From: an uncultured Acetobacteraceae bacterium
Lineage (GTDB): Bacteria > Acidobacteriota > Terriglobia > Terriglobales > Acidobacteriaceae
Length of the DNA stretch: 64,000 nucleotides
Direction of reading: 5' to 3'
Assembly (NCBI GenBank): GCA_964658265.1
Contig: CAZZYN010000006.1
Span: 13,790-77,789 of the forward strand
The position numbers were made by a program, and so were the translations under genes. The notes beneath the pieces were generated by a model, which saw only the letters and a program-made list of their open reading frames with translations, was not told the origin of the DNA and ran no database searches. Numbering within the stretch: position 1 is the stretch's first letter; each line of letters opens with the position of its first letter. Of this stretch, positions 32,971 to 62,292 are shown piece by piece.

Positions 32971-34029
32971 ATGACCATGTCGATCATCGCGCGCGCCCAG
33001 CTTCTTCTTGTAGCCTCACTCCTGCTTGTGCCCGTCTCGCGGTCGCAGGAGGCCAGCACTGCGGCGCCCTCTGCCGCGACTGCAGATGCATCCGAGATCC
33101 AGCTCGACGTCGTGGCCACACCCAAGTCCGGACCGCCGAGTGCCGAACTGAGACGCGAGGATTTCACCATTCTCGACAACAAGGTTCCGCAGCCGATCTC
33201 GTCGTTCAAGGCTATGGGCGGAGAGAAAGCGCCGGTGCAGGTCCTGCTGTTGATCGACGCAGTGAACACGTCCTACGAGAACATCGCGTTCGAGCGCGGC
33301 GAGCTCGACAGGTATCTCAAGGCCAATGGTGGTCATCTCCCGTATCCGACAGCACTTGCTGTCTTTACGGATACCAACACCCAGATCCAGCAGGGGTTCA
33401 CTACGGATGGTAACGGCCTGAGCAAGGATCTCGGCAACATCGCGATCGGGTTGAGGGATATCCGTCGGTCCGCAGGCTTCTATGGAGCCGCCGAACGCTT
33501 CGACCTCTCCCTGCGTGCGCTTGAGCAGCTTGCTTCCCGCGAAGCATCTGTACCCGGCCGCAAGCTGGTCCTCTGGATCTCTCCTGGCTGGCCGCTGCTG
33601 TCCGGCCCAGGCATCCAGCTGAGCTCAAAAGAGCAGCAGCAGCTGTTCGGCAGCATTGTCGGTATCTCCCATGCCCTTCGGCAGGCGCGCATCACCCTGT
33701 ACAGCCTCGACTCCTACGGGGCGTCGGAGAACCTGGCCCGCGCCGACTACTACCAGAGCTTTCTGAAAGGTGTCAGCAAGCCCAGCCAGGTCGATATCGG
33801 CGATCTGTCCCTGCAGGCACTGGCGGTCCAGTCAGGCGGCCTCGCGCTGAACTCCACCGGCGTGCAGAAGATGATCGAGCGCTGCGTGGCGGATGCCAGT
33901 GCGTATTATGAGCTGTCTTTCCGGCCGCTGCCGACGGAGACGCCAGCCACCTATCACCACATCGAGGTCAAGCTGACCCAGGCGGGTCTCACGCCGCGTA
34001 CGAGGCAGGGTTACTACACCCAGCCGTAA
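32971..34029 (+). CDS. Secreted VWA-domain protein (acidobacterial VWFA-related type)
   Basis: Signal peptide, then a beta-sandwich (IQLDVVAT...FTILDNKVPQPISSF) followed by LLIDAVNTS and a von Willebrand A-like fold. This architecture matches what I recall of TIGR03436. Confidence 0.75.
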   Translation: MTMSIIARAQLLLVASLLLVPVSRSQEASTAAPSAATADASEIQLDVVATPKSGPPSAELRREDFTILDNKVPQPISSFKAMGGEKAPVQVLLLIDAVNTSYENIAFERGELDRYLKANGGHLPYPTALAVFTDTNTQIQQGFTTDGNGLSKDLGNIAIGLRDIRRSAGFYGAAERFDLSLRALEQLASREASVPGRKLVLWISPGWPLLSGPGIQLSSKEQQQLFGSIVGISHALRQARITLYSLDSYGASENLARADYYQSFLKGVSKPSQVDIGDLSLQALAVQSGGLALNSTGVQKMIERCVADASAYYELSFRPLPTETPATYHHIEVKLTQAGLTPRTRQGYYTQP

Positions 34030-34316
34030 CGGCGTGGCTGGTGCGACCTGCGCCACAGGGCCGTGGAGAGTGGTGCCCACCCGCGGCCGGAAAACGGTTG
34101 CTGTCCGGATACCCACATTCCCACATCGTTCCACACCACTTGCACCATCCCCGCACCTTGGCGCACGACCCGGCGCCGCGTACCTTCGAAGCACCGGCAG
34201 GGATACGTATTCCCGCTCCAGCCGCAGCTTCCAACGATCTCCACAGGCCGGATACCTGCATTTTGCGACCGGGTATCTTCCCCGTCATCAAATCACAAGA
34301 TGTTGGGGTTTCGAGC

Positions 34317-34345
34317 TTGACATGATCTATACACGGGGCTAACTT
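34317..34345 (+). promoter_or_regulatory. Candidate sigma70-type promoter for nrdJ
   Basis: TTGACA (34317-34322), 17 nt, TAACTT (34340-34345). This would leave a 5' UTR of about 150 nt. Assigned by eye only. Confidence 0.25.
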
Positions 34346-34501
34346 CACATTTGCAACCCCACTTTCGAGCCATGCCGCTCAAAGGGCTGCCCACTTTAGA
34401 CACGCATCCCCAGACCCGTTTTCCCCGTCTGCAGCTCACCTTTTAGAAGAGAGCGCGGCGGCTCTTCAGTCTCTATTTCGATACCGCCCCAAGGAGTCAT
34501 C

Positions 34502-53244: not shown

Positions 53245-55392
53245 TTAAACCGCCTGGACTGCCGCTGGTTCCTGGACAGTGACCTTCATGATGACGGGCT
53301 TTTTTTCATAGCCGGCTAGTTTCAGTGTCCACTCTATGGTCTCTGCGTCGCCCACTTCAACTCCGGATGGCCTCGATGACGTGCCCAGTGTAAAGCCAAG
53401 CCGCTCATAGAGGGTGCGGACCATCTCGTTCTTCGCGGTCGGACGGTACAGCCCGATGATCCGCATAGCGCCTAGCCGGCGAGCAGCGTCGATCATGATG
53501 TTCAGGCAGGCCTCTTCCACCTGGCGGCCGAGCACGCGGCAACTCATCAGCCACGTGTCCATGACCAGTGCATGGTCAGCCTCCACCCGTCCGATCAGGA
53601 TTGCGATGATGCCGTTATCGCCGAAACGGTCCGTCAGCCGAAACTGGTAAGCAGCCACGCCGGGATCGCTCATCATGGCGCGCACATCGGCCTCGGTGTA
53701 GCGGCGTGTCGTCAGGTTGAACTGGTTGGTTTTGTTGATCAGCTGCACGATTCTGGCCAGTCCGACTGCGTCGAAAGGGCGGACGATCAATTCCATATCC
53801 AGGCCACGCAGGTAGCCGTCGAGATCGGTGGCGGAGGTCTTCAACTGTTCACGTTCGATATTGGCGCGATATTGACCAGCGCGCTCACGATCCTCTTCGG
53901 TGACCGCCAGCGATTCGAAGTAGCCCGCGGCCGCAATGGTCGCAGCGTAGAACGAGGGGTCCTCGGGAAGTTCCGGGACCTGCACTTCCGGCAGCTCCTG
54001 CCGGACCAGGTTGCGCTCGAAGGGATTGTCGTCGGCGAAGACCAGCGAATCGAGACCGATGTTCAGTGTCTTCGCGATATGCCGCAGGTTCCCGGCCTTG
54101 TCCTGCCAGTTGGCGACGAAGCAGGCAATATCCTTCCGCTTCAACACCATGTCGGGATGCTGTTCAAAGGGCGAAAGCGCATTTGCCTCGTCGTTTTTCG
54201 AGCAGACCGCCAGGATGACGCCGCGTCGCGAAAGCTGCTGCGCATATGTTTGGAAGTCAACGAATGCTTCGCCCATTGCAGAGCCCTGGCCCAGCTGAAT
54301 ACCTTCCAGGCCATCGTCTCCGATGACTCCACCCCACAGGGTGTTATCGAGGTCGAGCACCAGGCACTTCGAGGACCGGCCACGGATGGCTGCCAGCAGC
54401 CGGCCGGCCAGGTCGCCGTACAGATGCGAGACGCGCGGATGGACTTCCTGCTTGGAACGGTGCCACAGGACCGGATCGAACCAGTGTGCCATCCCCGCCT
54501 CAGCCGCATAGCTGTCCACTGCAAGCAGGTGGGCGCCGTGCTTGTCCGCGAGCGACCGCAGGCGGCCATTGATTGTTTCCACAATCGCTGCGGGCGACTC
54601 TGGATCACGCTGCTCATTGTTGCCGAGCAGGCGCGGAAACACCGGCAGCACTGCCTGGTGAAGGACTGTCGCGTTGAAGTTGTCGCGGGCCGCATACCAG
54701 CACGTCGTGATGTTTTCGAGTGCAGCTTCCGGATTGCCTCGCGCGGACGCAGCCACATGGTGCGCGTCGAGCGCCAGCAGTACTACCTGCGGCTTGAAGG
54801 CCTTCAGGGCCTGTCCGGGCTCCAGCAGCTCCTGGCGATACTGCCCGTATTCTCCTTCGAAGACTTCAATCCACATTCCGCGCCGTAGTCCTGCGACGCG
54901 GATTGCCGGGGCCAGGTGGTGCAGCGTGGAAGAGCCCAGCAATGCCAGCCGGATAGGTGCGCCGGCTGCTGAGGGTGCCGTGGGAAAAAGCTTGCGGGTG
55001 GTTCGATCCAGTTTGCCCGTCTCGAGGAAGTCGATGCGGAAGTTCGCTGCTGCTACCAGGTGGCGCCAGCGGGAGAGTTCATCCGGCTGTTCTGTCGCTG
55101 CACGCAGATGGCTGCCCCAGTCCGCAATGGCTGGCAGCCAGGTAAATTCAGTCAAAACATCTCTCCAGAATCGGGGGTTTTCCTGCCAGCCCAATTGTAT
55201 GCACAGGAGCGCCAGGGTGGAATTCAGCTGCGGGTGGAAGAATGCGGGCGTGACTCCAAGCCTTCGAAGCTGGCAGGGATGCAGGCGGAACTTCTGCTGC
55301 CACCACGGAAAAGGGCCTCCCGGATACGGGACGCCCTCTTCATTCCTAATTTGCGCCGGCCGTTGCCGGTCACTTCCAGGAGAACCGTTCAC
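53245..55392 (-). CDS. FkbH-like HAD-superfamily (subfamily IIIC) phosphatase/acyl-loading enzyme with C-terminal GNAT-like domain
   Basis: HAD motif I LVLDLDNTLWGGVIGDDG, motif II CSKN, and motif III/IV KAGNL...FADDNP. The C-terminus has DRFGDNGIIAIL...WLMSCRVLGRQVE, typical of FkbH-family proteins. The N-terminal ~330 aa is SGNH-like (LALLGSST). The true start is uncertain. Confidence 0.85.
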   Translation of the reverse strand: MNGSPGSDRQRPAQIRNEEGVPYPGGPFPWWQQKFRLHPCQLRRLGVTPAFFHPQLNSTLALLCIQLGWQENPRFWRDVLTEFTWLPAIADWGSHLRAATEQPDELSRWRHLVAAANFRIDFLETGKLDRTTRKLFPTAPSAAGAPIRLALLGSSTLHHLAPAIRVAGLRRGMWIEVFEGEYGQYRQELLEPGQALKAFKPQVVLLALDAHHVAASARGNPEAALENITTCWYAARDNFNATVLHQAVLPVFPRLLGNNEQRDPESPAAIVETINGRLRSLADKHGAHLLAVDSYAAEAGMAHWFDPVLWHRSKQEVHPRVSHLYGDLAGRLLAAIRGRSSKCLVLDLDNTLWGGVIGDDGLEGIQLGQGSAMGEAFVDFQTYAQQLSRRGVILAVCSKNDEANALSPFEQHPDMVLKRKDIACFVANWQDKAGNLRHIAKTLNIGLDSLVFADDNPFERNLVRQELPEVQVPELPEDPSFYAATIAAAGYFESLAVTEEDRERAGQYRANIEREQLKTSATDLDGYLRGLDMELIVRPFDAVGLARIVQLINKTNQFNLTTRRYTEADVRAMMSDPGVAAYQFRLTDRFGDNGIIAILIGRVEADHALVMDTWLMSCRVLGRQVEEACLNIMIDAARRLGAMRIIGLYRPTAKNEMVRTLYERLGFTLGTSSRPSGVEVGDAETIEWTLKLAGYEKKPVIMKVTVQEPAAVQAV

Positions 55393-55739
55393 CGCAAAGT
55401 GTCACAAGGGTCTCAACATGCGGCCATGTGGACGCAAGAGCGCTCAAGCGCGGGAGCTCTCATCTTGAGGCAAGAGTCTCCCCGGGGGAGGTGCCGGACT
55501 CTTCTCTCAGGGTCCCGGTGGACCGGGTGGCCTGGAAGAGCGATCCGGATTTAGTGATGTGCTTGTTTGCTGTAGTGACTGTTACATACGGAGTCGCGGA
55601 TAACAAGATTCAAGCCATCACACGAACGTGGTACCAGTGCGGATTCGGGAAAGCCGCTTCTGTTTCGGGATCATGGCGCTCGACGTATCGTGCTCCGCAT
55701 TCGCCGCAAAGGCGCCCGGGGCAACCCGGACCGGTCGCA

Positions 55740-55768
55740 TTGACACCAAGCATAAGAGCAGTTAGGTT
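55740..55768 (+). promoter_or_regulatory. Candidate sigma70-type promoter of the his operon
   Basis: TTGACA (55740-55745), 17 nt, TAGGTT (55763-55768). The predicted start site would fall within a few nt of the leader ATG at 55777. Assigned by eye only. Confidence 0.25.
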
Positions 55769-55776
55769 GATTGCAG

Positions 55777-55854
55777 ATGCGAGTTCGCTTCCACCATCGC
55801 CATGACCATCATCATCATGCGCACAGCGTGTGGGCGGACTCTTCCCGGACATAA
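55777..55854 (+). CDS. hisL: Histidine-operon leader peptide (25 aa, MRVRFHHRHDHHHHAHSVWADSSRT)
   Basis: Hand-translated and shorter than the ORF-track cutoff. There are 8 His codons within codons 6-16, including a run of four. The stop TAA is at 55852-55854. It is followed by an intrinsic terminator and then hisI. Confidence 0.7.
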   Translation: MRVRFHHRHDHHHHAHSVWADSSRT

Positions 55855-55885
55855 GGCATAAGCACTTAAGACCGTGAAAGATTAG

Positions 55886-55921
55886 AAAGGCCCGCCAGCG
55901 GATAACGCAGCGGGCCTTTTT
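55886..55921 (+). terminator. Intrinsic terminator (attenuator) between the leader peptide and hisI
   Basis: AAAGGCCCGC (55886-55895) pairs with GCGGGCCTTT (55910-55919), with an inner GCG/CGC extension and a GATAA loop. It ends in TTTTT (55917-55921), 39 nt before the hisI ATG. There is no upstream + strand gene for it to terminate other than the leader. Confidence 0.75.
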
Positions 55922-55960
55922 ACTTAAGGCCACGTAGCAGCGAATGAACAGGAGAACGAG

Positions 55961-56335
55961 ATGGCTCTGCAAACAGAACGCGAGGTCACGATTGACTTTG
56001 CCAAGATGGACGGCCTGGCGCCTGCCGTCGTACAGGATGCTGAGACCGGCCAGGTATTGATGGTAGGTTTCGTCAACGAGGTAAGCTACGCCCGGACTCT
56101 TGAATCCGGATACGTGACGTTCTGGAGCCGCACCCGCGGCAAGCTCTGGATGAAGGGTGAGACCAGCGGCAACCGCCTGCGCATCCTGGAGGCTTCTACA
56201 GACTGTGACAACGACACACTGCTGTTTCGTGTGCAGGTCGAAGGCGACGGCCTGGTCTGCCATGAAGGCACCAAGGGCTGCTTCACGAAACAGATCACCA
56301 TGCCCACTGCAGACAGCCTCGCGGAGGCCAAGTGA
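55961..56335 (+). CDS. hisI: Phosphoribosyl-AMP cyclohydrolase (monofunctional HisI, no HisE domain)
   Basis: [38 protein letters not shown] and CDNDTLL...CH motifs. 124 aa. AGGAG SD. Confidence 0.9.
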
Positions 56336-57213
56336 TGGCAGCGGGAAAGCTTAGACTTGGCATTCCGAAAGGCAGTCTGCAGGATGCGACGATCGCCCTG
56401 TTCGAGCGCGCAGGGTGGCGGATTTATGCGAACGGCCGCTCGTACTTCCCGGCCATTGATGACCAGGAGATCGAGTGCATGCTGATCCGCGCCCAGGAGA
56501 TGGCCCGCTACGTGGACAAGGGCGTACTGGACGCCGGGCTGACCGGCGTTGACTGGGTCGTAGAAAGCGGACGGAAGGTCACCAGCGTCACCAGCCTCAC
56601 CTACTCAAAGCAAAGCCGGACCAAGGTGCGCTGGGTGCTGGCGGTGCCGGAAGACTCCCGATATCAACGCGCCGAGGATCTGGCGAATACCACCATTGCG
56701 ACCGAACTGGTGGAAGTGACAAAGCGCTATTTTGCGGAGAAAAATGTCCCCGTCAAAGTGGAATTTAGCTGGGGCGCGACGGAGGTCAAGCCTCCGATGC
56801 TGGCGGATGCCATCGTCGAGGTCACCGAGACCGGCTCATCGCTGAAGGCGAACCGACTCCGTATCATCGACACAGTCATGGAAAGCGAGACGCACCTGAT
56901 CGCCAATCCTGCTGCCTATGCCGATCCGTGGAAGCAAAAGAAAATCGATAACCTGGCGCTGATGCTCAAAGGTGCGATGGCCGCGCAGGGCCAGGTCGGA
57001 TTGATGCTGAACGTGGAGAAGATTCATCTCGCGGCCATTCTGTCTGTGCTGCCAGCGCTCAATTCCCCCACCATCAGTGAGCTCAGTACTGCCGGGTGGG
57101 TGGCGCTGAATACCATCCTTGAAGAAAGCGTGGTGCGCGACGTGGTGCCGAAGCTGAAGGCGGCAGGGGGTACCGGCATCGTCGAATACCCGTTGAATAA
57201 GGTCGTACTGTAA
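56335..57213 (+). CDS. hisG: ATP phosphoribosyltransferase, long form
   Basis: [19 protein letters not shown] and the [17 protein letters not shown]-loop context. Its ~293 aa length implies the C-terminal regulatory domain. The start overlaps the hisI stop (TGATG). Confidence 0.9.
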
Positions 57214-57237
57214 CGCTGCGCAGAGGAGCACGCAGAT

Positions 57238-58503
57238 ATGAAACTGCATGAGACAAGTGGATGGAGCGCAGCCCGCACGGCCAAGCTGATCGCTGCACTC
57301 GAACACCGCGGCACCACTTCTTCAGAAGAGGTCTCACCGCGCGTGAGAAAGATCATTCGCGATGTGCGCAGTGGCGGCGACAAGGCCCTGTTGCGTTACG
57401 CGCGCAGGCTTGACGGCCTTTCGCCGGAACAGCCGCTGCGCGTCACGAAGCAGGCGATGCAGGATGCGCTGGCCACGCTGGCAGCCCCGCTGCGTTCTGC
57501 TCTCGAACTGGCCGCAGACAACATCCGTGCATTTGCCCGGCGTCAGCTACCCGGCGAGTGGAAGCTGCAGGCGGCTGAGGGCGTGGTGACGGGTCAGCTG
57601 CTGCGGCCGCTGGATGCGGTCGGCTGCTATGTTCCCAGTGGGCGCTATCCACTGCCATCTACCTTGCTGATGACAGTAATACCGGCCCAGGTCGCAGGGG
57701 TTAAGCGGATTGTAGTGGTTTCGCCGCGGCCATCACCAGCGACGCTGGCTGCTGCGGCGCTGCTGGGCGTGGAAGAGTTTTACGCGATCGGCGGCGCACA
57801 TGCGATCGCGGCACTTGCCTACGGGACGGCGAGCGTCTCACGCGTCAACAAGATTGTGGGACCCGGCAATCAATATGTCACGGCAGCCAAGCGGCTGGTC
57901 TCAGGTGACTGCGGGATTGATATGCTTGCCGGGCCGACCGAGATCGGCGTGATGAGTGATACAGGCAATCCGGACTGGATCGCAGCTGACCTGGTTGCAC
58001 AAAGCGAGCACGACGCGGAGGCGCTCGCTGTTCTGATCACTACTAACGCGAAGCTGGGAAAAGCAGTGCTGAAGAAAAGTACGCAGTTTGCACGAAGGAA
58101 TAAGACTGCTGCCCTCGCCCTTGCGAAGAATGGATATGTGATCGTTGCGGCTTCGCGGGAAGAAGCTCATGCCATCACGAACCGGCTGGCATTCGAACAT
58201 CTGACGATCGACGCCGATGCGGACCTCGAATGGGTGACCAATGCCGGCTCGGTGTTTGTAGGGAACTGGTCAGCACAGCCGCTGGGTGACTATATCTCTG
58301 GTCCGAATCACACGCTGCCAACAGGCGGCCTGGCGCGGGTTCGCGGGGGCCTGAGCGTGATGGACTTTGTGAAAGTGATGACCGTTCAGCAGTATGCCCA
58401 AGCCGGCGTCCAGGCACTGGGTCCAGCCGCAGTCGAAATCGCCGAGGCAGAAGGATTGCGCGGCCACGCACAAGCCATCCGGTTGAGGGTAGGACATGAC
58501 TGA
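57238..58503 (+). CDS. hisD: Histidinol dehydrogenase
   Basis: GGAHAIAALAYGT, GPGNQYV, QSEHD and PNHTLPTGG motifs. Confidence 0.95.
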   Translation: MKLHETSGWSAARTAKLIAALEHRGTTSSEEVSPRVRKIIRDVRSGGDKALLRYARRLDGLSPEQPLRVTKQAMQDALATLAAPLRSALELAADNIRAFARRQLPGEWKLQAAEGVVTGQLLRPLDAVGCYVPSGRYPLPSTLLMTVIPAQVAGVKRIVVVSPRPSPATLAAAALLGVEEFYAIGGAHAIAALAYGTASVSRVNKIVGPGNQYVTAAKRLVSGDCGIDMLAGPTEIGVMSDTGNPDWIAADLVAQSEHDAEALAVLITTNAKLGKAVLKKSTQFARRNKTAALALAKNGYVIVAASREEAHAITNRLAFEHLTIDADADLEWVTNAGSVFVGNWSAQPLGDYISGPNHTLPTGGLARVRGGLSVMDFVKVMTVQQYAQAGVQALGPAAVEIAEAEGLRGHAQAIRLRVGHD

Positions 58504-59587
58504 TGCTGCAACGCCTTTGCCGCCGGTGCCTCGCCGGGCAGTAGCTGGCATGAAGGAGTATCACCCGCCGCTGGCCGGTCGCGATCACCTGCGCCTCGAC
58601 TTCAACGAGAACACGCTGGCATGTTCGCCGCGCGTGCTTGAAGCACTGGCACGCGTGGCAGCTGGCGACCTGACGAGATATCCGGAACGGAGTGTCATCG
58701 AAGAAAAGGTGGCACATCATCTGCAACTGCAGCCGGAGCAGGTGCTGCTGACCAACGGCGTCGATGAAGCGATCCATGTACTGTGCCAGGCTTTTCTCGA
58801 TTGCAGAGACGAGATGCTGCTGCCTGTGCCGACCTACACCATGTACGAGGTGTATGCCTCGTCGACCGACGGACAGAGCGTCACCGTGCAGGCGGGCGAC
58901 GACTTCACTTTTCCTTTTCAGCGCCTTCTTGATGCGATCGATGCCAAGACCAAGCTCATCTGCATCGCCAATCCGAATAGTCCGACCGGCAGCACGGTCA
59001 AGCGCGACGAGATACTTGCCATCGCTGCAAAAGCGCCGCACGCAGTTGTCCTGGTGGACGAGGCCTATTTTCATTTCTTTGGCGAGACGGTCATCGACCT
59101 GGTCGACGACGTGCCAAACCTGGTGGTGGCGCGCACTTTTTCGAAGGCCTATGGGCTGGCTGGACTGCGCCTCGGCATGCTCGCTGCATCTGCCGAAATC
59201 ATGCAGTGGCTGCGCCGCGTGATCTCGCCCTACAGCGTGAACTCACTCGCGCTGGCATGCCTGCCTGCGGCTCTCGAGGACCAGGCCTACCTGGATTGGT
59301 ATGTTGGTGAAGTAAAGCTTGCGCGCACCGAAGTGGCTCGGGATCTGGTGCAGGCTGACATCCGGCACTGGCCTTCCGCCGCGAATTTTGTTCTTTTGTA
59401 CATCGGCGCGAAGCATGCCGCGTTTGTGTCCGCCATGCGTTCACGCGGTGTTCTCACGCGCGATCGCTCAGCGGATCCTGGCTGCGATGGATGCGTGCGC
59501 CTCACGATTGGTACACGCGAGCAGATGACGTTCGCGATGTCCGCACTGCGGGAAGCATTGCAGGAGATTGGATGGAAACCGGAATGA
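58496..59587 (+). CDS. hisC: Histidinol-phosphate aminotransferase
   Basis: Class II aminotransferase. NPNSPTG, VDEAY and the PLP-Lys context [15 protein letters not shown]. The start overlaps the hisD stop in ATGACTGA. Confidence 0.9.
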
Positions 59588-60192
59588 CAGTAGAGACATC
59601 ATCGCTTCGCCGCGCTACTCTGCATCGGCACACCACCGAGACCAAGATCGATCTTGAATTGACCATCGAAGGCGGCGGCCACTATGACGTGCACACCGGA
59701 ATCCGCTTCTTCGATCACATGCTGGAACTCTTCACGCGACACGGCGCTTTCGATCTGAAGTTGAAGTGTGACGGCGATCTCGATGTCGATCAGCACCATA
59801 CGGTCGAAGATGTAGGCATTGCCCTGGGTGAAGCTTTCGACAAGGCACTCGGCGACAAAAAAGGCATACTGCGCGCGGGCTATTTTCTGATGCCGATGGA
59901 CGAGACTCTCGGCATCGCTGCGATCGATCTCAGCGGCCGCGTCGCCAGCGTTGTATCCACGCTGGTTGATGTCGTCACCGTAGGCGATCTGCAGACCGAA
60001 CTGGTTGAAGATTTCTTCGAGGGCTTCGCACGGGGTGCCCGGGCCAATGTGCACGTAAAGACAATGTATGGCCGGTCGAACCATCACAAGATCGAGGCAC
60101 TCTTCAAGGCGTTTGCGCGTGCCCTTCGTGTGGCCTGCTCGCGTGATCAGCAACTTGGCGAGATGCTGCCCAGCACCAAGGGCCTGCTCTGA
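59584..60192 (+). CDS. hisB: Imidazoleglycerol-phosphate dehydratase (monofunctional, no phosphatase domain)
   Basis: [31 protein letters not shown] and [16 protein letters not shown] motifs. There is an ATGA overlap with hisC. Confidence 0.9.
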
Positions 60193-60797
60193 TGATTGCT
60201 GTCATCGACTACAAGGCCGGCAATCTCACGTCTGTGTTGAAAGCCCTTGATGCGCTCGGCGCCGGTGATGCTTTCGTCACCTCCGATCCGGCAATTATCA
60301 GGAAGGCGGAAAGGATCATCCTGCCCGGCGTAGGGCATTTTGCGTCGACCTCTGTGCTTACAGAGCAGGGCATTACTCCGGCTATTCGGGAGCGCCTTGC
60401 GGCGGGTGTCCCTTTCCTTGGCATCTGTGTTGGCCTGCAATGGCTTTTCGAAGGCAGCAGCGAGGCTCCGGAAGTTCCCGGTTGCGGCATCTTCCCGGGC
60501 TGGTGCGAACGCTTCACGCCGGGCGCGAAAGTGCCGCACGTCGGCTGGAATTCTATCCGTATTAATCCTGGCTCAAGACTGATGCATGGCGTTGATGAGG
60601 GTAGTTACGTCTACTACACACATTCGTATCGCGCACCGCTTGTCAAAGCCACAGCGGCTGTTACGGAATATAGCGAAGCCTTTACGGGAGCCGTCGAGCA
60701 GGCGAATGTGATGGGTGTGCAATTTCATCCCGAGAAGTCCGGCGCGGCGGGACTGCAGGTTCTCAGTAATTTTTTATCATGGACGCCCGCATGCTGA
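60192..60797 (+). CDS. hisH: Imidazole glycerol phosphate synthase, glutamine amidotransferase subunit
   Basis: LPGVGHF, catalytic GICVGLQ and VQFHPEKS. Confidence 0.95.
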
Positions 60798-61573
60798 CGC
60801 GACGCATTATTGCCTGCCTGGACGTCAAGGCAGGTCGGGTCGTCAAGGGTGTCAATTTCGTTGACCTGGCTGACGCCGGCGATCCTGCCGAACTAGCGGG
60901 CCGGCATGCCCGCCTGGGTGCGGACGAGATCGTGCTGCTCGATATCACGGCGACACATGAAGGACGTGGAACCCTAATCGACACAGTCAAGCGAACGGCG
61001 CGCGACCTGTTTATTCCGTTCACCGTGGGCGGCGGCATCCGGACAGCCGATGATGCCGCGGCTGTTTTCGACGCTGGTGCAGACAAGGTGAGTATCAATT
61101 CGGCAGCACTCGTTCACCCCGAACTGATCGATGCAATTGGACGCAGCTTTGGTGCGCAGGCAGTCATCGTAGCCATCGACGCGCGCCGGGGCAATGCCAG
61201 GGCTGATCGCGCGGAAGTCTATGTGAATGGCGGCCGCAAGCCTGCAGGTCGCCAGGTGATCGAGTGGGCTCGTGAAGCAGAGCAGCGCGGCGCAGGTGAA
61301 ATCCTGTTGACTTCCATGGATTCCGACGGCACCCGGGCCGGATTTGACTGCGAGCTTACAGCGGCTGTCAGTGATGCAGTCCAGATTCCGGTCATTGCTT
61401 CCGGTGGTGCGGGGACGGCCGAGCATTTTGTCGAGGTCTTCGGTTGCGGCGCCTCGCAGGGTCATGCCGATGCAGCACTGGCTGCCAGCATTTTTCACTA
61501 CGGCGTATCCGACGCGCGCTCGCTGAAGCAGCAGTTGCAGCTGGCAGGTATCCCGGTGAGGCTGCCATGCTGA
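60791..61573 (+). CDS. hisF: Imidazole glycerol phosphate synthase, cyclase subunit
   Basis: [26 protein letters not shown] and IASGGAG motifs. ATGCTGA overlap with hisH. Confidence 0.95.
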
Positions 61574-62292
61574 TCCCTTCCATTGACCTGATGGGCGGCC
61601 GTATCGTCCAGCTGGTTCAGGGCGAAAAGCTCAGGCTGGCGTTTGACGACTTCGAATACTGGATCGAGCGCTTCTCGAAATATCCCATGGTGCAGCTCAT
61701 TGATCTCGACGCAGCCATGCGTCAGGGAGACAACCAGGAATTGATTGAGCAATTCGCGAAGCGTCTGCCGTGCCAGGTTGGCGGCGGCCTCGGCACCATC
61801 GGACGTGCGCAGGCGATGCTGGCAGCGGGTGCGAAGCGCGTCATCCTCGGATCCGCTCTTTTCGGCGAAGAATCTGATGTTGAGGAGGCGGCTGGACGCG
61901 AAGAAACACAGCCCGCATGGAAGTTGATCCGGCGCAGATTTGCAGCAGAGCTTGCCGAAGCTGTTGGCTCTGAACATCTGGTTTTCAGTGTCGACACGAA
62001 AAACGGCAAGGTTGCGGTCAAGGGATGGAAGGAGCAGGTCAACCTGGAACCTGCTACTGCCATGCGCGGCCTTGAACCCTTCTGCAGCGCCTTCCTGTAT
62101 ACCCATGTCGACAAGGAAGGGACGATGCAGGGGTTTCCGATGAAAATTGCAAAGGAACTTCGCGGCGTTACCCAACGTCAACTGATCGTAGCCGGAGGGA
62201 TCCGCGAGCAGGCAGAGATAAACGCGCTCGATGCCATGGGAGTGGATGCTGTGGCAGGCATGGCTGTCTATCTGGGCCGTCTTGCGACGTGA
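61567..62292 (+). CDS. hisA: ProFAR isomerase HisA, apparently of the His6/eukaryote-like subtype
   Basis: [38 protein letters not shown] and VAGGI. This pattern resembles my recollection of yeast His6 more than the canonical bacterial HisA (IIPAIDL..G..VRL). It has the same ATGCTGA overlap, here with hisF. Confidence 0.85.

Follow-up and report, generated by a model that had tools for sequence, protein, structure and literature searches.

A probable histidine leader-peptide attenuator upstream of the his operon in Acidobacteriota

Introduction

Does an acidobacterium read its own supply of histidine through the translation of a short leader peptide? The question is raised by a stretch of 64,000 nucleotides (nt) from contig CAZZYN010000006.1 (the window, by which we mean the whole stretch that was analysed), in which the histidine operon hisIGDCBHAF is preceded on the plus strand by a small open reading frame (ORF) crowded with histidine codons and by a hairpin with the form of an intrinsic terminator. 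Leader-peptide control of his is textbook knowledge for enterobacteria, and an earlier note, made from the letters of the window alone, had proposed a translation-coupled attenuator of that general kind here. We evaluated this proposal by comparison with related genomes and metagenomes and by folding the predicted leader RNA. The element has the parts that define leader-peptide attenuators in general, namely a His-rich ORF, an intermediate terminator and an antiterminator on the 5' arm of that terminator. From its sequence we conclude that it is very probably a ribosome-mediated attenuator of hisIGDCBHAF that would respond to the supply of charged histidine transfer RNA (tRNA-His).

Results

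A histidine-rich leader ORF and an intrinsic terminator precede hisI

The core of the element consists of the following features.

55777..55854, plus strand: leader ORF of 25 codons with the product MRVRFHHRHDHHHHAHSVWADSSRT, from the ATG at 55777 to the TAA at 55852-55854; homologous ORFs of 23-28 codons occur in relatives
55792..55824, plus strand: putative regulatory cluster of His codons, 8 in the 11 codons from 6 to 16, identified by shuffling and by the mixing of CAT and CAC codons
55886..55921, plus strand: intrinsic terminator, with its 5' arm at 55886-55895, its 3' arm at 55910-55919 and a U5 tail at 55917-55921

In MRVRFHHRHDHHHHAHSVWADSSRT histidine occupies residues 6, 7, 9, 11, 12, 13, 14 and 16. 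A run of 8 His within 11 codons occurs only once in the six frames of the 64 kilobases, and 200 shuffles of the window peaked at 4-6 His per 11 codons and never reached 8. Because this density was unmatched in the 200 shuffles, the leader ORF exceeds what chance would provide. The terminator, which reads AAAGGCCCGC-CAGCGGAUAACGCA-GCGGGCCUUU followed by the U5 tail, starts 31 nt past the leader stop codon, with 39 nt left between its end and the hisI ATG (55961). Folded alone, the hairpin has an energy of -26.0 kcal/mol, and for the region 55770-55930 the value is -61.7 kcal/mol (z = -5.1 relative to 200 dinucleotide shuffles). The earlier note had placed an ORF with 8 His in residues 6-16 at 55777-55854 and a hairpin with a U5 tail at 55886-55921, 31 nt after the stop and 39 nt before hisI; all of these coordinates were confirmed in the sequence.

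The terminator is also near-symmetrical: an A tract precedes it and a U tract follows, which makes it look terminator-like on the minus strand too. The minus strand of 55886-55921 gives a partial Thr_leader-like match (E = 1.7), and no minus-strand gene enters the hairpin.

The leader and its terminator are conserved upstream of hisI

To place the window among its relatives we used a HisI scan with one genome per GTDB species, which yielded 80 loci. Most belong to Acidobacteriaceae and other Terriglobales, including Candidatus Angelobacter, and the other orders represented are Vicinamibacterales, Bryobacterales and a few Bacteroidales. The closest HisI match, 83% identical, came from an Acidobacteriaceae metagenome-assembled genome (MAG), in agreement with the earlier impression that the window is acidobacterial. 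Under a strict rule, 64 of the 80 loci have a His-run short ORF no more than 700 nt upstream of hisI, and the carriers include Terriglobales, Vicinamibacterales and Bryobacterales. Culturable strains that carry the element are Tunturiibacter lichenicola MP8S11 (L004), Terracidiphilus gabretensis S55 (L021), Granulicella rosea DSM 18704 (L031) and Granulicella sp. S156 (L058). Leader peptides such as MQVRTHHHRHHHHHVTSVSADGSGQR, MQSRRHHGHHHHHGHSMPADCHGLS, MSVRLHHRGHHHHHATSVLAAVSCAVN and MISFAHRHHHHHCAANVSAEACRS illustrate the range. The 16 loci that lack a strict His-run ORF include five on contigs that break off upstream, and eight Bacteroidales or unclassified loci. L003, L039 and L062, negative by the strict rule, have weaker His ORFs with the same terminator; in L051, a strict-rule negative with enough flank, the terminator was seen.

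The terminator is likewise conserved. A core of GCCCGCC...GGCGGGC followed by U4-9 stands after the ORF in 60 of 65 leaders when the terminator is scored strictly, and the remaining five have the tails UUUCU or UUUGU. We aligned 50 Terriglobales leader sequences (alignment A1), in which the leader ORF has 23-28 codons, 5-9 of them His, and ends in TAA (39 sequences), TAG (10) or TGA (1). In this alignment the outer terminator stem is 94.4% paired, with an A-U/G-C exchange at one pair. The His codons comprise 236 CAT and 140 CAC, mixed inside single columns (for example 24 versus 17, or 28 versus 20). As a CAT/CAC mix within columns is the pattern expected of it, this points to selection on decoding as histidine. 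Conservation of the His-codon run and of the hairpin upstream of his operons in relatives, which the earlier note had named as a check of its proposal, was upheld across dozens of Terriglobia genomes and beyond.

Some of the loci carry unexpected taxonomic labels. L029 (OY970299.1, labelled Verrucomicrobiae), L024 and L079 (labelled Rudaea, Rhodanobacteraceae) have Acidobacteriaceae-like hisI genes (69-76% identity); L029 and L079 also bear the acidobacterial His leader, and the upstream flank of L024 is only 93 nt. Their labels or binning are probably wrong. In L071:60-224, on a contig labelled Ilumatobacteraceae (Actinomycetota), a hisI with 60% identity is preceded by a 35-codon ORF ending ...AHNSHHHVHHVSRRALV, a terminator GCCCGUCGG...CCGGCGGGU6 and a candidate antiterminator of -14.6 kcal/mol, where shuffled sequences averaged -8.2. 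Either the contig is mis-binned or a similar attenuator exists in another phylum.

An antiterminator helix covaries across Terriglobales

The strand that would compete for the terminator lies immediately behind the His codons.

55829..55837, plus strand: segment 2, the antiterminator strand UGUGGGCGG, which pairs with 55892-55900, or in an alternative register 55830-35 with 55890-95

We refer to the 5' part of the terminator as segment 3, since the surface of the 5' arm able to pair with segment 2 reaches 55900, and to the 3' arm as segment 4. The consensus of A1 just past the His run is CGUGUCGGCGG, which is complementary to the terminator 5' arm CCGCCGGCGCG. Between columns 60-70 and 135-145, 91.2% of the cells hold standard pairs, compared with 29-52% in controls in which the 3' partner was slid by 1-3 columns. 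Changes on both sides were found at 4 of the 11 antiterminator pairs (25 cells), with U-A, C-G and U-G alternating at columns 64:141 and C-G and U-A at 65:140, and the covariation score was reached by none of 500 shuffles. RNAalifold, given no hint, included the antiterminator helix in its consensus structure (columns 62-69 with 136-143). In the window the helix joins 55829-55837 to 55892-55900 over nine positions, with one mismatch and two G-U pairs. This pairing had been derived by hand in the earlier note, and it proved to be the covarying helix itself (columns 62-70 with 135-143).

The same compensation is visible through the peptide. Behind the His run, relatives have variants such as S-V-S-A-D, S-M-P-A-D and S-V-L-A-A, and the S/P/L changes at the UCG/CCG/UUG codon are matched by base changes in the terminator arm. 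Because its codon changes are compensated in this way, the post-His part of the peptide is kept as RNA and not as protein.

Upstream pairing and a hairpin around the stop codon

Further pairings surround the antiterminator strand.

55781..55795, plus strand: segment 1, codons 2-6, the likely 5' strand of an anti-antiterminator; pairs with 55826-55841 in free RNA (minimum free energy (MFE) folds, -22.8 kcal/mol)
55816..55832, plus strand: small hairpin CAUGCGC-ACA-GCGUGUG between the last His codons and the 5' half of segment 2 (-6.2 kcal/mol)
55842..55878, plus strand: hairpin around the leader stop codon, nested in the antiterminator loop

When the RNA was folded only up to the antiterminator strand, every one of the 50 sequences paired that strand with upstream RNA, and 39 did so with codons 1-6. 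The loop that segments 1 and 2 close when they pair contains the His codons. Compensating variants of the helix were seen (GUCCGC/GCGGAC, GUUCGCC/GGCGAAC and GAUUC/GAAUC), with GUCC/GGAC, GUUC/GAAC and AUUC/GAAU also visible. Together the folds and variants suggest that segments 1 and 2 likely form an anti-antiterminator. The small hairpin also appeared in the RNAalifold structure, where columns 51-53 pair with 59-61 and covary. It bears on the register proposed earlier for the 1:2 pairing, 55819-25 with 55829-35: that register is possible (-7.6 kcal/mol), and relatives keep 55816-22 with 55826-32 instead.

The hairpin around the stop codon had gone unmentioned in the earlier note. The stop codon falls within or beneath it in 46 of 50 relatives (A1 columns about 71-120). 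Its 3' strand is CAGGAU or AGAGAUC, a conserved motif that lies between ORF and terminator, and the partner of this motif is GUCCGG or UGGCC directly 3' of the antiterminator strand. Such a hairpin could bring segments 2 and 3 together, or it could sense a terminating ribosome.

A simulated ribosome on the His codons favours the antiterminator in nascent transcripts

Equilibrium folding was dropped as a test of the switch, the terminator being nearly always the MFE structure, and folds of nascent transcripts that end before the terminator 3' arm (n = 50) were used instead. With a simulated ribosome holding a His codon in its A site, the antiterminator formed in each of the 50 sequences; counted by stall position, it formed at 350 of 366. 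Masking up to the stop codon abolished it (0 of 50), a result that is partly trivial in that the mask also covered RNA behind the ribosome. In free nascent RNA, the antiterminator strand was sequestered upstream in 15 of the 50 sequences, the window included.

The leader promoter is placed for a leaderless start

55740..55745, plus strand: TTGACA, the -35 hexamer of the leader promoter; its spacing to the leader start is constant in 59 of 65 leaders
55763..55768, plus strand: -10-like hexamer TAGGTT (TANNNT), 17 nt after the -35 hexamer and 8 nt before the AUG

Upstream regions anchored on the leader start codon align without gaps. TTGACA (at most one mismatch), a spacer of 17 or 18 nt (16 nt at one locus) and TANNNT were found in 59 of 65 leaders. 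The 'nearly leaderless' promoter TTGACA-N17-TAGGTT of the earlier note is thus present in the form described, at a conserved position. From the end of the -10 hexamer to the start codon there are 6-11 nt in 58 of these 59 promoters, with a mode of 8 (23 promoters at 8 nt, 13 at 9, 12 at 10 and 6 at 7). Apart from SD-like tracts in L040 and L069, no Shine-Dalgarno (SD) sequence precedes the leader start in the aligned upstream regions. Bacterial transcription usually starts about 7 nt past the -10 hexamer. Given this distance and the observed spacing, the 5' untranslated region (UTR) is expected to be short, 0-3 nt across the leaders. For the window we infer a transcription start at about 55775-55777 with a 5' UTR of 0-2 nt. 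Judged by its promoter, the leader messenger RNA (mRNA) is likely to be leaderless, and we hold this with fair confidence.

The arrangement varies at the edges of the family. Bryobacteraceae loci have an extended -10 of the TGnTAYAMT type in place of a -35 hexamer, with a spacing of 8-9 nt in three of four; in L069, also from Bryobacteraceae, the spacing is 19 nt. L040:2773-2830 and L069:2830-2865 bear the same His leader with 16-19 nt between -10 and start and an SD-like GGAGAG or AGGAA. Because of this longer spacing and these SD-like tracts, leadered variants appear to exist in the family.

Observations that weigh against attenuation

A number of results speak against an attenuator at this locus or limit the case for it. 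A simple consensus scan for promoters and terminators flagged neither the leader promoter nor the terminator. Its rules on loop length and TATAAT make it uninformative here: TAGGTT agrees with TATAAT at 3 of 6 positions, and the loop of the hairpin is over the limit. The register of the 1:2 pairing shifts between subgroups, such that a fixed-column covariation count is not meaningful for it. Compared with its relatives, the window has a UCG-to-UGG change that weakens the family register of the antiterminator; the same change also makes a shifted register of 6 base pairs, GUGGGC at 55830-35 with GCCCGC at 55890-95. The best antiterminator duplex of the window reaches -15.6 kcal/mol, against -22.8 for the 1:2 pairing and -26.0 for the terminator. 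Of the two structures whose energies the earlier note had suggested comparing, the antiterminator is the weaker in the window.

Support for the antiterminator is weak in distant clades (Vicinamibacterales, Bryobacterales and others). In a duplex-energy test of 11 such loci, the fraction of 200 shuffles was at most 0.015 in three (L063, L064 and L071) and marginal, at 0.06-0.11, in four more. Folding also sets limits. When full-length transcripts were folded with a masked ribosome, the terminator was the MFE structure in 41-50 of the 50 sequences in every state. Because the full-length MFE is the terminator in nearly all states, any switch would have to be kinetic, that is, co-transcriptional, which also holds for the classical attenuators. 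In the nascent folds, the stall positions that failed to give the antiterminator are mainly at the last His codon, where a stalled ribosome covers segment 2, and in free nascent RNA the antiterminator was already the MFE structure in 33 of 50 sequences.

Alternative explanations

The structures might be switched by a protein or by uncharged tRNA, the His run being incidental or secondary. Alternative structures would be conserved irrespective of what reads them, the leader start lacks a Shine-Dalgarno sequence, and T-box or repressor control of his is known in other phyla (PMC9413887). Rfam 15 at gathering thresholds gave no match to any family over the whole window, and a cmscan of 55300-56100 against Rfam 15 at E ≤ 10 returned neither His_leader (RF00514) nor a T-box. 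The sole family matched in that interval was Thr_leader (partial, E = 0.65), which is taken to be a generic GC hairpin with a U tract. The lack of a T-box or other Rfam match argues against this explanation, as do the CAT/CAC wobble in an ORF of fixed length and frame, which indicates that decoding is selected, and the fixed -10-to-start distance, as leaderless translation expects. We consider it unlikely.

A second possibility is that the short ORF encodes a functional His-rich small protein (for example a metal-binding one), that the hairpin is its terminator, and that hisI has a promoter of its own. The conserved length and His content of the ORF and the strong terminator behind it would fit. 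Outside the His run, however, it is the RNA pairing rather than the amino acids that is conserved, with the S/P/L changes compensated, and a peptide gene would have no need of an antiterminator helix. In the window just 39 nt separate the terminator from hisI, without a promoter-like site. The location of the element was evaluated further in metagenomes with the pattern GTGTCGGCGGAC-N25-55-GCCCGCCGGCG, which describes the antiterminator strand and the terminator arm without the His codons. Of 69 matches, 40 had a His-run ORF that shares the motif's frame, and 39 of these 40 were followed by hisI at 29-272 nt. The fortieth, L085:1740-2414 (Ga0137403_10138086), has a perfect His leader that passes into unrelated high-GC sequence from the middle of the terminator hairpin; chimeric assembly at the inverted repeat is the most likely cause. 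The other 29 matches lie in unrelated GC-rich coding DNA, have no His run and are due to chance. The element was not seen in front of genes other than hisI in this pattern scan, and its position directly upstream of hisI in 39 of 39 interpretable metagenome copies is hard to reconcile with a free-standing protein gene, which we regard as very improbable.

The weakest alternative, in which the hairpin is a constitutive or bidirectional terminator or an unrelated structure, maybe insulating the divergent gene, and the ORF is there by chance, can draw on the A and U tracts that make the hairpin terminator-like on the minus strand, and is scarcely credible given that nothing on the minus strand enters the hairpin (the neighbour at 53245-55392 diverges), that the His run is beyond chance and that ORF and hairpin co-occur in more than 100 independent sequences.

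The his operon and its neighbourhood

Genes were assigned by Pfam, and the Shine-Dalgarno sequence was identified by inspection of the sequence.

55950..55954, plus strand: Shine-Dalgarno AGGAG of hisI, 6 nt before the ATG
55961..62292, plus strand: operon hisI-hisG-hisD-hisC-hisB-hisH-hisA-hisF, the presumed target of regulation
55961-56335, plus strand: hisI (PRA-CH), first gene of the operon
56332-57213, plus strand: hisG (HisG and HisG_C)
57238-58503, plus strand: hisD
58496-59587, plus strand: hisC
59491-60192, plus strand: hisB
60192-60797, plus strand: hisH
60779-61573, plus strand: hisA
61444-62292, plus strand: hisF

The leader ORF has no counterpart to the canonical Shine-Dalgarno on hisI. 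Upstream, the sole neighbour is a divergent gene on the minus strand (53245-55392) with an FkbH_N domain. This bears out the earlier statement that no plus-strand gene lies upstream for the hairpin to terminate. A plus-strand ORF at 55428-55805 (125 amino acids), which overlaps the leader, was considered as a real gene and rejected for want of a Pfam match; it was left uncalled in gene calling on a public contig encoding an identical HisI. Between the FkbH_N gene and the his leader promoter, 55393-55739 (about 350 nt) is a divergent intergenic region with no assigned feature, within which the promoter of the FkbH_N-domain gene presumably lies. Elsewhere in the window, 33800-34350 holds only short overlapping ORFs and has no Rfam match, and a 94-amino-acid frame from 34116 has 6 His codons in 11 (YPHSHIVPHHLHH), without leader-like anatomy.

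Discussion

These data allow us to propose a mechanism by which translation of the leader would control the his operon. Building on the anatomy of the element, its conservation and the covariation of the antiterminator, we infer the start of transcription, the stalling of the ribosome, the folding kinetics and the response to histidine as follows. Transcription would begin at the AUG at 55777 or 1-2 nt upstream of it, and the leader would be translated as a leaderless mRNA. With His-tRNA plentiful, the ribosome would traverse the His codons and segment 2, open the stop hairpin and halt at 55852. It would then sit inside the antiterminator loop with its trailing edge at the 3' end of segment 2, which would be occluded or else recaptured by segment 1. 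Segments 3 and 4 (55886-900 and 55910-19) could pair, and polymerase would be released at the U tract. When His-tRNA is scarce, a ribosome stalled at codons 6-14 would cover segment 1 and leave segment 2 free. Segment 2 would capture the terminator 5' arm before the 3' arm is made, with the stop hairpin nested inside; no terminator would form and polymerase would read into hisI. In the absence of translation, segments 1 and 2 would pair and termination would be favoured.

The closest known counterpart is enterobacterial hisL (RF00514), which shares with the acidobacterial element a short ORF of His codons followed by an intrinsic terminator before the first his gene. Both have mutually exclusive terminator and antiterminator structures, read in hisL by ribosome stalling on the His codons, as we propose here. 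The differences are nonetheless considerable. The element has no match to RF00514 even at E ≤ 10, and its ORF has no Shine-Dalgarno sequence and a promoter placed for a leaderless start. The E. coli hisL peptide has 16 residues with seven consecutive His, compared with 25 residues and an interrupted run here, and the first gene here is hisI and not hisG. Enterobacterial his leaders follow an A:B/C:D/E:F arrangement; in the acidobacterial leader the His codons lie in the 1:2 loop and the stop codon in a nested hairpin. The acidobacterial element is probably of independent origin from enterobacterial hisL.

Leaders of related design have been predicted in other phyla. In Firmicutes, predictions of His leader-peptide attenuators cover the Bacillus cereus group, Peptostreptococcaceae and Erysipelotrichales (PMC9413887); His-codon leaders have also been predicted upstream of hisS/hisZ in bacilli (PMC2965389). 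They resemble the present element as lineage-specific His-codon ORFs with a terminator and an antiterminator, recognised by comparative genomics and without a match to RF00514, and they differ in phylum, in having 3-5 consecutive His codons and in that no leaderless start was reported for them. A conference paper on Actinobacteria is among the works that PMC4833913 cites. Leaderless leader peptides also have precedents: 14 were predicted in Deinococcus deserti (PMC4007540), and in mycobacteria leaderless polycysteine short ORFs were shown experimentally (bioRxiv 10.1101/834739). Those attenuators have a regulatory short ORF at, or at most 1 nt from, the 5' end of the transcript, as proposed here, and it controls amino-acid genes downstream. 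They concern other amino acids and phyla, and their transcription start sites were mapped, whereas ours is deduced from promoter spacing. The His T-box of Firmicutes and Actinobacteria senses tRNA-His charging and sets a choice between terminator and antiterminator upstream of his genes, as the acidobacterial leader would; it is distinguished by the lack of a T-box match here and by a leader of only about 145 nt with a translated-looking ORF.

A full-text literature search, with subscription journals mostly outside its reach, returned no description of a His leader in Acidobacteria, in line with the earlier note, whose author was aware of no his leader-peptide attenuator described for the lineage. 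On the strength of these sequence comparisons, the element probably works like hisL outside RF00514, as a new, independently evolved leader-peptide attenuator. We lean, with less assurance than for attenuation itself or for the leaderless leader, towards the broader view that Acidobacteriota own a His attenuator family that is independently evolved and obligatorily leaderless. On that view the 5'-terminal AUG would be bound by a 70S ribosome while emerging from RNA polymerase, the His codons would lie in the loop of the anti-antiterminator, and the terminating ribosome would sit inside the very helix that is to be prevented.

The textbook mechanism of attenuation is left unchanged by the acidobacterial element. 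What it would add is a further independent origin of leader-peptide attenuation beyond Proteobacteria, in an abundant and little-studied soil phylum in which almost no cis-regulatory RNAs have an assigned function. As it matches no Rfam family, it is a candidate new RNA family for annotation, and it may offer a histidine-responsive expression switch for the few culturable strains. Attenuation needs synchrony between ribosome and polymerase, and here no ribosome-binding site loads the ribosome. If the family is indeed obligatorily leaderless, it would be the first leader-peptide attenuator for the phylum, judged by the literature searched, and a clean natural system for transcription-translation coupling on a leaderless mRNA.

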